DNA of 32,000 nt from Candidatus Heimdallarchaeota archaeon (lineage in GTDB: Archaea > Asgardarchaeota > Heimdallarchaeia > Heimdallarchaeales > Heimdallarchaeaceae), in assembly GCA_030668875.1 (NCBI GenBank), contig DAOVER010000003.1, positions 1 to 32,000 of the forward strand. Reading direction: 5' to 3'. How positions within the stretch are numbered: position 1 is the first letter of the stretch; every line of letters begins with the position of its first letter. The notes below the pieces were generated by a model. That model did not search any database. It had not been told where the DNA came from and saw only the letters and a program-made list of their open reading frames with translations. The position numbers were made by a program, and so were the translations under genes. This document shows positions 1 to 3,384 of the stretch, in pieces.

Positions 1-8
1 TTTATAAG
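1..8 (+). promoter_or_regulatory. Putative TATA box for (leaderless) tnpB
   Basis: TTTATAAG at 1-8, about 20 nt before the ATG at 29, the usual archaeal spacing. Confidence 0.4.
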
Positions 9-28
9 AATCTCTAGGTAAAGAAGAG

Positions 29-1285
29 ATGACGAAAGTTCCTAGGGTGGAATGTATAGAAGTAAAGTATCAGCCTAGTTTAAGCAAGCTTTGTCATCAA
101 GTAAAAAATCTCTATAATCGAGCGAATTTTCTGATAAAAACTTCATTGAACAAAAAGAACAAACTCCTCTTTTACATTGATCTCAACAAACTACTCAACC
201 ATGAAGAATGCTACCGTGTTCTTCCTGCTCACACTGCCCAACATACCCTCAAACTTCTTTGCAGAAATTGGAAGGGGTATTTCCGAGCGATGAAGGAGTG
301 GAAAGTCAACCCCGATGCTTTCTTCGCTATGCCCCACCCACCTAATTACAAAAAGAAGGATGGTGAAGTGGTAGCTATTTTCACTAACCAACAAGCGAGG
401 ATTGTTAATGGATGGCTGGTTTTGCCGAAAAAAGTGGGATACACTTACAAAACACGGTTGACCTCCCATACTGATTTACGAGAGGTGAGAATCATTCCAA
501 GAAGAGTAGGGTATACAATAGAATTAGTCTATCAGAAAACCTTACCTAAACTCCGCAAAAAGTTGATAAGAAAAGGCGGGGTAGATTTAGGGATGGACAA
601 CCTTGCAGCTTTTGTGGATAACCTCGGAGGGCAACCGATTGTTATCAAAGATGCAGGGAAAGGGATAAAATCCATAACCCAATACTATTTGAAAAAGCAA
701 AAACAATTACAAATTCAATATGCTCAACAACAAAGACAAAAACTGAAAGGAAAAAACCGATTGACCTATGGTCATACTTACTACAAACTCCGAGAAAAGT
801 GGAGGAGGAAATTGAAGGACGCCATCCACAAGCTCACCTGCTATTTACTTGACTTGTGGGTGGAAAGAGGTCTACACGAGGTCATCATCGGTTACAATGA
901 GAAGTGGAAACAAGGGGTGCAGTTCTGGAAGAAAATCACCCAGATGTTTGTCACCATTCCATTCTTGCGAATCATCAACATCTTGAAGTATAAAGGAGCA
1001 GAACGAGGGATAAAGGTAGAGATGATTCCCGAAGAATATACTTCCAAGTGTAGTTTCCTAGATAATGAATTTCCCCAAGCTAGGAAAAAGTATGCTGGTC
1101 GTCGAGTTACTCGAGGGTTGTTTCGAACCTCTCAAGGTCATCTCATTAATGCTGATGTCAATGCTGCATACAACATTCTACTTAAAAGCGATCCGAAAGC
1201 CTTGCCTAAACGCACGGTGAACGGGGTAGGAGGATACGTGATGTATCCACTCAGAGTGAGTATAGAATCTCTTCGTTCTACATGA
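29..1285 (+). CDS. tnpB: TnpB RNA-guided endonuclease (IS200/IS605 OrfB), RuvC-II-rearranged type
   Basis: N-terminal LCHQVKNLYNRANF; RuvC-I GGVDLGMDNLA; IIGYNEKWKQ; IPEEYTSKCSFLD; GRRVTRGLF; RuvC-III INADVNAAYNIL. Confidence 0.95.
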   Translation: MTKVPRVECIEVKYQPSLSKLCHQVKNLYNRANFLIKTSLNKKNKLLFYIDLNKLLNHEECYRVLPAHTAQHTLKLLCRNWKGYFRAMKEWKVNPDAFFAMPHPPNYKKKDGEVVAIFTNQQARIVNGWLVLPKKVGYTYKTRLTSHTDLREVRIIPRRVGYTIELVYQKTLPKLRKKLIRKGGVDLGMDNLAAFVDNLGGQPIVIKDAGKGIKSITQYYLKKQKQLQIQYAQQQRQKLKGKNRLTYGHTYYKLREKWRRKLKDAIHKLTCYLLDLWVERGLHEVIIGYNEKWKQGVQFWKKITQMFVTIPFLRIINILKYKGAERGIKVEMIPEEYTSKCSFLDNEFPQARKKYAGRRVTRGLFRTSQGHLINADVNAAYNILLKSDPKALPKRTVNGVGGYVMYPLRVSIESLRST

Positions 1286-1365
1286 TGACCTCTAAGCGCA
1301 CCATGAACCTTGCTTTGTCCAAGAGGACAAGAAGACAAATAGACATCATAAAGTAGAACATAATC
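1200..1365 (+). ncRNA. Predicted omega-RNA (right-end RNA) of the tnpB element plus flank-derived guide; boundaries approximate
   Basis: Hairpins GGATAC/GTATCC (1232-1248), ACTCA/TGAGT (1249-1261) and the terminal hairpin 1309-1334. TnpB omega-RNAs are known to overlap the gene 3' end and the right end. Confidence 0.5.
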
Positions 1366-1749
1366 ATTAACATTTTCATTTAGAAAAGTCATTCTTCTTG
1401 AAATTTTTACAGGTGTAACTTGGAACTTTTCTGCAAGATCATTGTGTGCTTGTTTTGCATTAATTGTCATTTCTCGTAATAATTTCAAATCTAGATTCTG
1501 GATTTTATTAAGAACGTTTATCTCTTGTTTAACTTCAGAAATAATGGTATCAGAAGCTTTTTCATACTTTTCTTTCCATGGCTGAATATCCCAAATCCAT
1601 TCACCTTTCTCATTATCATAAAATTCAAATTCAGGCGCAGAACTTGCTTTGAAATCCTTTCCTTGGATTTTCTCAAACTCCTCAATTAAATTCATATTTT
1701 TAATTTTAGGAACATTGCTTCTCTGTCTGGTACACTTCTTCCTTCCTTC
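1350..1749 (-). pseudogene. Internal fragment of a double Lrp/AsnC-type wHTH regulator, paralog of 2278..3384, truncated at both ends by IS ends
   Basis: SSAPEFEFYDNEKGEWIWDIQPW and LDLKLLREMTINAKQAHNDLAEKFQVTPVKISRRM align with ISYPDLERFNSETLSWNFSWDKW and IQFKILRELTSNA of the neighbouring 368-aa protein. Both ends of ORF 1138..1767 run into IS sequence. Confidence 0.8.
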
Positions 1750-1900
1750 TGATCCTCTCCCCCTCAACGCACGTGAGGGGACCCACCTAAACGACGGTTA
1801 GACCGCCTCTGGCAAGTTTGACCAAGTTTCATGACGTGCGTTATCTAACTCATTTTTACGTTCTCTAGTCCTACCTGCTACTTTTTCACACTAAACTTGT
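1750..1900 (-). ncRNA. Gene-less IS200/IS605 right end / stand-alone omega-RNA-like element
   Basis: GC-rich island. Minus strand ends CCCCTCA-CGTGCGT-TGAGGGG-GAGAGGATCA, typical of IS605 right ends. Second hairpin GGCGGT-CTA-ACCGTC; loop region 1766-1774 is perfectly complementary to 1834-1842. Confidence 0.65.
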
Positions 1901-1965: not shown

Positions 1966-2265
1966 ATGTTATCAGTGAGAAGAAGCGCAAGAAATATGTC
2001 ACCTAAGTATATTGTTCCTGTTGATTCTAAAGAGGAAGAAGACGAATATGTCAAAGATATGTATTGCAAAAATTGTAAAGTGAAAGGTGGTGTAGAAATT
2101 GAGTTTCTCAGGGATATTGTTGAAGAGGGATACCACTATGAAGTTGCTAGGTGTATATGTGGTCGATGCAATAGACGTTTTGAAGTTAGTTTTTTTCCTA
2201 CATTTTCTAGTATCAATACAAAAATCGAAACTACTAATAACAGTATGTCAAATCATTCTTTGTAA
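1966..2265 (+). CDS. Small zinc-ribbon hypothetical protein
   Basis: CKNC ... CICGRC motifs; GGTG RBS upstream of 1966; promoter at 1923-1930. Confidence 0.7.
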   Translation: MLSVRRSARNMSPKYIVPVDSKEEEDEYVKDMYCKNCKVKGGVEIEFLRDIVEEGYHYEVARCICGRCNRRFEVSFFPTFSSINTKIETTNNSMSNHSL

Positions 2266-2277
2266 GACAAACTTACT

Positions 2278-3384
2278 CTAAATTTCTAATCCAAGTTTGG
2301 ATAGAGGTTCTTTTATCATATATCCGCTTGAGGTTTTCCAGCATTTGTTGTCAAAATCATAATTCTCATCGTAGAACCAATAATTGCGTGATCCCTTGTC
2401 TTTGGTACTTAATACATAAACCTCTACATTCTGAAGTGTGTTCCAAATTGAAAATGCAAATTCAGATGCTTGTGAAGCGCTTATATTTCCCCACATAAAG
2501 AGATTTGTCCCCTTTAGGATGTCCATTGAAACATGAAATGGTGGTGGATTATCTTTCATAAGATTGTACAGTTGGTTCTTTTTTTCTTTAGTGACTGATG
2601 ATGCGACAGCTATATATGTTTCAGTTAAATTGAATGATTTTCTGTCAATTAGCAATCTAACTTTATCTACATAGTTATCCATAACATAGTTGTAATGCCG
2701 GTGAGCATCAGTTTTACTAAGATTGAATTTCTCTTTTAACTCGCTTTGTTTCTTAGTAGCATTGGATGCATTTGAAGTAAGCTCTCTTAAAATTTTGAAT
2801 TGAATGGGTTTGTAATTTTTATAGGTGCTCTTATCTTCAGTAGTTGTTTCATGACTGGTGGGATATTTTTTCAATTTATTAAACCACTTATCCCATGAAA
2901 AATTCCAAGATAAAGTCTCTGAATTGAACCTTTCGAGATCTGGATAAGAGATTTGTCTTAAACCTGAACTTTCATAAATTCTGAAAGCATTGATATATTT
3001 TTTCTGTTTCAGTATCTGAAAATATTCTTTTAGCAAACCTAGTGTATTTGGTGGAATCTCGAATTGCATGTATAACCCAAATTTTCCCCCAAATGTTCTT
3101 GCCCGATATACCGTATATGGATGAATATCACATGACTCTTCCACTAATTTCATGGATTCTTTTGATGATACTTCCACTAAAACATGTTTTCTCTCTAATC
3201 CCAAAGTTTCAGGCTTATATAGCGCAATTGTTTTTCTAATCATCCCCCTTTCTTTTAGATTATCGAGTCTAACTTTAACAGTAGGTCTAGATAGCTTAAG
3301 TTTTTCAGCAAGTTCTGAGATAGATATGGTAGGATCTTCTACCAATGCTAGAAGTAGCTCCATATCTTTTATATTCATACCCAT
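2278..3384 (-). CDS. Transcription regulator with two Lrp/AsnC-type wHTH modules
   Basis: HTH1 ISISELAEKLKLSRPTVKVRLDNLKERGMI; HTH2 FKILRELTSNA..QSELKEKFNLSKTDAHRHY; each followed by an alpha/beta segment. Confidence 0.8.
   Translation of the reverse strand: MGMNIKDMELLLALVEDPTISISELAEKLKLSRPTVKVRLDNLKERGMIRKTIALYKPETLGLERKHVLVEVSSKESMKLVEESCDIHPYTVYRARTFGGKFGLYMQFEIPPNTLGLLKEYFQILKQKKYINAFRIYESSGLRQISYPDLERFNSETLSWNFSWDKWFNKLKKYPTSHETTTEDKSTYKNYKPIQFKILRELTSNASNATKKQSELKEKFNLSKTDAHRHYNYVMDNYVDKVRLLIDRKSFNLTETYIAVASSVTKEKKNQLYNLMKDNPPPFHVSMDILKGTNLFMWGNISASQASEFAFSIWNTLQNVEVYVLSTKDKGSRNYWFYDENYDFDNKCWKTSSGYMIKEPLSKLGLEI

Follow-up and report, generated by a model that had tools for sequence, protein, structure and literature searches.

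A short GC-rich island near the start of contig C29 raises the question of whether a Heimdallarchaeota genome encodes a guide RNA there in its own right, or whether the island is a piece of a mobile element. The window analysed here is the whole 32,000-nt stretch, the first 32 kb of this contig, taken from a 3.23-Mb genome with 33.8% G+C. The island itself is real: G+C content is 47.7% over positions 1750–1900 and reaches 56% over 1756–1842, compared with 33% for the window. An initial annotation interpreted it as a gene-less, minus-strand omega-RNA locus of IS605 type that ends near position 1750 and could program a TnpB protein in trans. Our comparison with related copies indicates that positions 1711/1723–1841 are very probably the plus-strand right end of an IS607-family element, left behind by a deletion and still carrying an omega-RNA scaffold. 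Rfam searches of the window and of full and mini elements, at gathering and permissive thresholds, returned no family, group I intron, HEARO or other known RNA, and no tRNA or tmRNA was found.

The contig starts inside an unrelated multi-copy insertion sequence (1–1353, plus strand) that encodes a canonical 418-aa TnpB (ORF 29–1285; Pfam OrfB_IS605 and Cas12f1-like_TNB) and has its right end at about 1352–1355. In the genome, 30 or more copies of it terminate at query positions 1294–1355. Many copies of this family are located at contig ends, and together with the IS607 family it therefore explains much of the assembly fragmentation. Adjoining the insertion sequence is an internal piece of a winged-helix regulator gene (1354–1710, minus strand; weak AsnC-type HTH match), cut on one side by the insertion sequence at 1353 and on the other by a deletion junction. 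The ATG at 1695 in this fragment is an internal Met codon, not a true start. At the junction lies the 12-nt microhomology AACATTGCTTCT (1711–1722, plus strand), identified in a three-way comparison of the window, the G021 regulator gene and the element copy C76; 10–12 of its 12 positions are common to the regulator gene and the 3′ end of a tnpB-like gene.

The island had been described as free of open reading frames, which holds for most of its length and fails for 1711–1752 (plus strand), where a deleted 635-aa TnpB-like gene has left its final 13 codons (N I A S L S G T L L P S F) and its TGA stop (1750–1752). This piece is 95% identical to C76:570–701 and 92% identical to C48 over 131–132 nt, and its encoded C-terminus is the same as that of L027:1154–3061. 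The 87-nt module that forms the core of the island follows at 1756–1842. The right-end terminus of the element (ACGTGCGT) is at 1841, and positions 1842–1861 make up the flank in which, on the model of other TnpB omega RNAs, a transcript of the scaffold would have its guide; a T5 run is present within this flank at 1853–1857. Further to the right, a 99-aa Cys-rich ORF with no Pfam match (1966–2265, plus strand) carries its own TTTATATT box at about 1921–1930. It adjoins a gene for a 368-aa winged-helix (HTH_24/AsnC-type) regulator (2281–3384, minus strand), which is a paralogue of the truncated gene at 1354–1710.

The module is repeated. BLAST finds 26 copies in the genome, and all of these, like all foreign copies, stop sharply at the plus-strand base that corresponds to window position 1841, beyond which the sequences are unrelated. 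Because every copy ends at the same base and then gives way to unrelated sequence, we place the transposon terminus at plus-strand position 1841. To the left of the module, similarity runs on into several different upstream contexts; for the window copy, homology to the parent element reaches to 1711–1723. Position 1750, which the initial annotation took for the end of the element, is therefore internal. The flank in the adjacent guide position differs in every copy. Among 47 related loci retrieved from other Heimdallarchaeota assemblies, the module lies directly after the stop codon of a homologous gene, or overlaps it by ~20 nt, in about 45, and it adjoins the 3′ end of a tnpB-like gene at four loci of the home genome. 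A BLASTN search had been proposed as a check on the guide-RNA reading, and homologous right ends next to tnpB genes are indeed what it recovers. The foreign modules are 84–96% identical in DNA, and the proteins encoded beside them are down to 59% identical. Related elements are also present in three cold-seep runs that are labelled RNA-Seq and are probably DNA.

The four tnpB-linked copies (C48, C37, C87 and C76; family A) are IS607-type elements in which a left end, a serine-recombinase tnpA, a promoter-like TTTATATA box, a TnpB-like gene and the module follow one another, the gene running into the module. The C48 tnpA (L027) matches Pfam Resolvase (1.3e-21) and MerR (1.9e-13). A serine recombinase with a MerR-like HTH, the order tnpA–tnpB and a GT shared by both junctions assign the parent element to the IS607 family. 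The earlier assignment to an IS605-type right end does not survive this, nor does it fit the position of the proposed terminal hairpin, which lies 61–81 nt inside the true terminus.

The TnpB-like ORF spans 620–650 aa across the family and ~635–645 aa in family A, and it is intact in C48 (635 aa) and C37 (~640 aa). The expectation that a partner for the scaffold would be encoded elsewhere is thus borne out by compatible effector genes on these two contigs. The unrelatedness of the neighbouring TnpB is likewise confirmed: BLASTP of the 418-aa protein against the 635-aa family detects no similarity beyond an NAAxNI motif. Only the last 55 residues of the large protein, comprising a Zn finger and RuvC-III, are recognisable from sequence as TnpB/Cas12f. 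The 635-aa ORF has a Pfam Cas12f1-like TNB match (24.8 bits), and a profile search of the PDB retrieves 8hr5 (6e-7) and 9nzp (9e-5), matching in the Zn finger and RuvC-III. We modelled the protein with AF2 from 29 homologues (pLDDT 68), and the model contains, in order, a strand, a large helical lobe, a β-barrel and RuvC. Its Foldseek matches with E ≤ 0.001 are without exception Cas12f, TnpB, Fanzor or Cas12, as are nearly all of the top 50. The motifs G[LIV]DIN and, in nearly all sequences, KIExL are conserved. The third RuvC residue is His instead of Asp in 37 of 37 sequences, within NTHxNAAxNI or a close variant (xNA(A/S) after the His), and the nuclease activity of the family is putative for this reason. 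A D-to-H change in RuvC-III is known in other TnpB branches, which are thought to be still active (PMC10691335). A distant paralogue at G000 C95:34170–35831 (40% identity over 566 aa) is not followed by the 87-nt module and presumably uses a different right end and scaffold.

Comparative analysis supports a defined RNA structure for the module. The 7-bp stem CCCCTCA/TGAGGGG noted earlier is present at 1760–1766 and 1774–1780, enclosing a loop at 1767–1773, and forms hairpin 1, the ‘nexus’ stem-loop (1760–1780). Positions 1766–1774 are, as reported, the exact reverse complement of 1834–1842, and six pairs from this complementarity (1768–1773 with 1835–1840) hold across 68 copies, forming a pseudoknot between the loop and the segment directly before the transposon terminus. 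A composite second stem-loop (1789–1829) consists of an outer AAAC/GUUU helix (1789–1792 with 1826–1829), a 7-bp hairpin stem GGUUAGA/UUUGACC (1796–1802 with 1817–1823) and a 2-bp CC/GG tip (1806–1807 with 1811–1812). We evaluated this plus-strand model, comprising hairpin 1, the loop–terminus pseudoknot, the outer helix and the 7-bp hairpin with its tip, on an alignment of 68 distinct module copies. Standard pairs form in 97.1% of the 1832 cells, compared with 17–43% when the partners are slid by 1–3 columns, and none of 500 shuffles matched the observed whole-structure measures. Ten pairs show double-sided changes, four of them in the pseudoknot. Covariation had been named as a check on the fold, and this result provides it.

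The individual helices contribute differently to this total. Hairpin 1 is paired in 98.9% of cells. The pseudoknot, counted as a seven-pair helix that includes 1767/1841, is paired in 93.5%; each of the six pairs 1768–1773/1835–1840 is standard in at least 66 of 68 copies, and the outermost pair, 1767/1841, holds in 42. Compensatory changes at its four covarying pairs include G-C to A-U (six copies) and C-G to U-A (three copies), and its G·U variants occur in the plus-strand sense only. In the second stem-loop, pairing is 100% for AAAC/GUUU, 97.7% for 1796–1802/1817–1823 and 94.7% for CC/GG, with compensatory changes in five pairs; pair 1801/1818 is G·U in 41 copies. The hairpin at 1793–1807 that had been proposed to pair fully on the minus strand does so in only 18 of 68 copies, and the conserved helix of this region is the plus-strand one. 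A further helix drawn to close the fold through 1893–1899 places those bases in the unconserved flank. Single-sequence folding energies are no better than those of shuffled sequences on either strand (z = −0.13 for minus and −1.02 for plus) and Rfam is silent, so only the comparative evidence carries weight.

Wobble pairs indicate which strand is selected. Read on the plus strand, the paired positions contain 81 G·U and 16 A·C combinations, a ratio that would be reversed on the minus strand, which points to selection on a plus-strand RNA, co-oriented with the tnpB-like gene. The strand call is based on these wobble pairs only. In TnpB omega RNAs, a nexus stem-loop that pairs with the 3′ end of the scaffold is conserved and essential, and is accompanied by more stem-loops and then the guide (10.1101/2023.11.20.567912). 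The module has this published layout, with a nexus hairpin, a loop–3′ end pseudoknot and a second composite hairpin. Covariation and gene association favour the initial annotation as to the kind of object, a TnpB-transposon scaffold of omega-RNA type that has a hairpin and a pseudoknot, even as its strand is the opposite of the one proposed.

Several derivatives of the parent element occur without an effector gene. Families B (12 right ends) and C (five right ends) have no ORF. Their elements are ~390 nt long, are present in at least 16 copies and possess both transposon ends, a TATA-like box and the scaffold; the family-A left-end motif and the box are followed by ~265 nt of non-coding sequence that ends in the module. 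The conserved TATA-like TTTATATA box lies ~25 nt before the first helix. These elements carry an extra 5′ RNA domain of ~170 nt that covaries, and a twelve-helix structure for the whole (21 sequences) is 96.7% paired, compared with 32–41% in slid controls, with 47 double-changed cells versus 20 ± 3 in shuffles. At least nine further genomes of the genus contain them, with 69–97% identity over ~290 nt, and promoter-bearing gene-less elements outnumber effector genes by ~4–5 to 1. On this evidence families B and C appear to be mobile, promoter-bearing, effector-less guide-RNA elements of a kind already described.

Other contexts of the module are more varied. At G000 C15:30709–31484, a tnpA-only derivative, a serine-recombinase gene is directly followed by the 87-nt module, the tnpB-like gene and its promoter having been deleted at a short TCTTC repeat. 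At G000 C88:71838–71902 a C-type left end is fused to the terminal 38 nt of the right end in a mini-element of ~100 nt, which has no nexus hairpin and hence no pseudoknot. A further gene-less context is found at G000 C13:24227–24313 and at L091 and L094, where the upstream ~150 nt weakly match the 5′ domain of families B and C (nhmmer E 0.1–1), and these loci could represent a fourth mini-element lineage that has diverged further. Only a bare fragment is present in the window and perhaps at C53. Elsewhere on the same contig, outside the window, an inverted C-type mini-element (G000 C29:51583–51972) is matched by another at C83:33629–34016, with flanks swapped relative to G021, G013 and G025. 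The swapped flanks, at sites that are both empty in these relatives, indicate a chromosomal inversion by recombination between the two C copies.

The full-length genes also contain an unusual internal segment. Over aa 242–346 of the C48 protein (~100 codons; L027:1898–2188 = G000 C48:37597–37887, and the homologous positions of L028–L079), third-codon-position identity is 0.72–0.88, compared with ~0.6 elsewhere. An overlapping ORF was rejected as the cause, since 36 of 37 sequences have no other open frame. Conserved hairpins lie within the stretch, and an in-frame A_AAA_AAG heptamer is located just downstream. The stretch weakly resembles the 5′ domain of the mini-elements, with a common hairpin followed by CCCTCAGTTA. 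Searches of that domain against tnpB by BLAST and nhmmer give weak matches only (E ~0.005–0.03), one at the 3′ end and one in an internal segment, so that a descent of the mini-element 5′ domain from the mid-tnpB stretch (~aa 242–346 of C48) is suggestive. It is conceivable, if doubtful, that the internal stretch is a second functional RNA module of the large His-type TnpB and that its guide RNA is built unlike every characterised omega RNA. Were this the case, the window relic, which has no such domain, would be non-functional for that reason. Toward their 3′ ends, full-length genes show lowered synonymous variation in the final 15–25 codons only, and these are largely kept by the window remnant.

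The junctions of the elements outline a candidate target motif. At left junctions in the home genome, the unrelated flank is followed by ACCGT in 23 of 24 cases and by ACAGT in the remaining one; right ends read GCGT. Empty sites in relatives carry ACTGT and TCCGT/TCCAC/ACCAC where occupied sites carry ACCGT…GCGT, and GT ends both the left-junction ACCGT and the right-end GCGT. In characterised IS607 elements, the recombinase target motif is also the TAM, the end of which recurs in the final bases of the scaffold, and self and empty donor sites are told apart a few bases further upstream (10.1101/2023.11.20.567912). By analogy, ACCGT would be the TAM and GT the crossover core of the present family, with the shares of target and element in the 5-mer not separable. 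When the 24-nt flanks of all 26 copies were compared with the genome for trans targets, only chance-length matches (14–16 nt) were found, and exaptation of the guides was rejected on this basis. The window flank (1842–1861) has no second genomic match longer than 15 nt, and its two best matches are not beside ACCGT. It matches its own site alone, where the TAM position holds the scaffold (TGCGT, not ACCGT), and the guide of the window copy is therefore without a target in the genome.

The history of the window copy can be read from its left boundary. The regulator gene in G021:C235, G020:C10 and G013:C352 matches the window up to …AGGAA-A-TGCTTCT and then remains coding for more than 330 nt; past 1722, the window continues as the 3′ end of the tnpB-like gene and not as the regulator. 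Because the twelve bases at 1711–1722 are common to both partners, we interpret the boundary as a deletion junction formed at microhomology. A single G013 contig carries both the regulator gene and a homologue of the ORF at 1966, separated by 2.9 kb that contain other genes. The module is absent from the orthologous site in both G021 and G013. Homology between G021 and the right side of the window starts at 1851, and nothing in this assembly matches the G021 sequence to the left of its counterpart of the ORF at 1966. No left-end match lies near the window copy, and no TTTATATA-like box (up to one mismatch) is present on the plus strand over 1281–1840. T5 runs occur at 1404, 1558 and 1697, between the upstream 418-aa TnpB gene and the remnant. 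Every paired position of the 87-nt module is intact in the window copy, which is ~5% diverged from its nearest full copy, C76; judged by its sequence, the relic is young.

The simplest course of events would have two steps. A full family-A element may have inserted just upstream of the 99-aa ORF at 1966, and a deletion between the 12-nt microhomologies would then have taken out its left end together with tnpA, almost the whole of tnpB and several kilobases of host DNA, including the 5′ part of the regulator gene. This pre-deletion arrangement is deduced only from the gene order in G013. In an intact element, the module would serve as the 3′ scaffold of the guide (omega) RNA and end exactly at the transposon terminus, so that the next ~16–20 host bases would become the guide. 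By analogy with IS607 TnpB systems, the nuclease–RNA complex would recognise the emptied donor site as an ACCGT-like motif followed by a guide match and cut it, after which the element would be copied back. Production of the RNA, its binding by the TnpB-like protein and a function in homing are all proposed on the strength of this analogy. The remnant in the window is unable to transpose and has no recognisable promoter, and it is therefore most likely inert.

Could the remnant nevertheless be a working guide-RNA gene, with plus-strand transcription by read-through or from a cryptic promoter, the C48 or C37 protein binding the RNA in trans and 1842–1861 as the guide? The intact helices and pseudoknot of the window copy and the intact effectors in the genome are compatible with this, and trans-acting stand-alone omega RNAs are documented (PMC10691335). 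The AT-rich segment at 1696–1709 could by chance act as a TATA-like element, and the T5 run at 1853–1857 would end a transcript 12–16 nt into the guide. Weighing against it, the remnant lacks the TTTATATA-type box that all promoter-bearing derivatives retain, and on its left it is bounded by a deletion junction in a broken gene instead of a transposon end. Its absence from the orthologous sites of G021 and G013 leaves no sign of selection on the piece, and its guide has no target beyond its own flank. We consider a working gene unlikely. Measured against a stand-alone omega-RNA locus, the window copy has a compatible effector elsewhere but neither both ends nor a promoter box of its own. The description of a gene-less locus is accordingly correct in that no tnpB lies beside the scaffold, and incorrect in treating a fragment bounded by a microhomology junction as an intact stand-alone unit.

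Another objection is that the module might be conserved merely as DNA, as the right-end site of the serine recombinase, with the covariation reflecting two inverted protein-binding motifs that change together. Every deletion derivative with a left end, including the tnpA-only C15, has kept the 87-nt module, and the tip of the left end, which reads ACCGTCGT in C15, matches AACGACGGT within the module in inverted orientation; part of the module is thus probably a recombinase site. As an account of the whole module this is very unlikely, since the excess of G·U over A·C has no meaning for a double-stranded DNA site, three separate helices covary instead of one motif pair, and the motif shared by the loop and the 3′ end is absent from the left end. 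The geometry also fits the published nexus–pseudoknot design of TnpB guides, and the gene-less derivatives place their TATA-like box ~25 nt ahead of a larger covarying structure. The original proposal, an IS605-type minus-strand gene ending at ~1750 with the guide GAAGGAAGGAAGAAGT, retains a vanishingly small probability. Its stem and 9-nt complementarity do exist on the minus strand, as they must, both being strand-symmetric. However, copy similarity passes leftward through 1750 into tnpB coding sequence and stops at 1841, the wobble pairs favour the plus strand five to one, its second hairpin is complete in a minority of copies and the associated transposase belongs to the serine recombinases. 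What had been proposed as the guide is the antisense of conserved codons (L-L-P-S-F) that close the deleted tnpB, and the guide position begins at 1842 instead. The preferred reading remains the plus-strand right end of an IS607-family element, kept as a deletion relic.

The window copy is an ordinary relic, and the module that it contains is a real, well-conserved RNA design. The locus itself is of minor importance. It preserves the trace of a single insertion and a single microhomology deletion in an Asgard genome rich in transposons, and it illustrates how easily a palindromic scaffold is read on the wrong strand. The family is of wider use. Its 87-nt scaffold is available in ~70 natural variants that covary clearly, share a defined boundary and come with a candidate ACCGT target motif. 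Heimdallarchaeota are the closest archaeal relatives of eukaryotes, and the partner protein found in them represents a little-studied TnpB lineage of 620–650 aa with His in place of the third catalytic Asp. The family is therefore suited to testing whether this His-type lineage is an active RNA-guided nuclease. Its abundant promoter-driven mini-elements provide a clean natural case of guide RNAs spreading without a nuclease.

Comparison with known systems places the family among the TnpB transposons and distinguishes it from each of their characterised forms. The logic is that of the ISDra2 TnpB omega/reRNA (PDB 8H1J, 8BF8), in which the 3′ end of tnpB and the right end encode a pseudoknotted scaffold and the guide comes from the flank; Foldseek matches the AF2 model of the partner protein to 8h1j and to Cas12f structures. 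ISDra2 differs in using a Y1 (HUH) transposase and single-stranded hairpin ends, whereas the Heimdall element has a serine recombinase and its hairpin operates at the RNA level only, and Rfam detects no sequence similarity to the ISDra2 omega RNA. The partner family shares an altered RuvC-III residue with TldR and other nuclease-dead TnpB derivatives that use guides in trans (10.1101/2023.11.30.569447). The Heimdall guides, however, match their own insertion flank only and not the promoters of host genes. A nuclease-dead reading of this TldR-like sort, which the initial annotation had allowed for, was set aside for this reason, and because the His is conserved in a multi-copy, transposase-linked and evidently mobile family.

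Stand-alone omega RNAs (Altae-Tran et al. 2021, as described in PMC10691335) resemble the present loci in having a scaffold without an adjacent effector and effector-bearing copies in the same genome. As far as that account describes them, families B and C fit this description well. The window copy, by the same account, is a fragment: it is not mobilised, it has neither a left end nor a promoter box and its left boundary is a deletion junction. The closest counterparts are the IS607 TnpB–omega RNA systems (CboIStron TnpAS/TnpB and ISXfa1; Zedaveinyte et al., 10.1101/2023.11.20.567912). The Heimdall family differs from these in the size of its effector (620–650 aa, with a much larger predicted helical lobe), in the His at the third RuvC position, in its Asgard host, in a core that is probably GT instead of GG and, according to Rfam, in having no group I intron. 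The two have in common the order tnpA–tnpB, a right-end scaffold on the gene strand, a nexus pseudoknot and a scaffold that ends at the element boundary, its last bases (CGT) being common to the target or TAM-like ACCGT.
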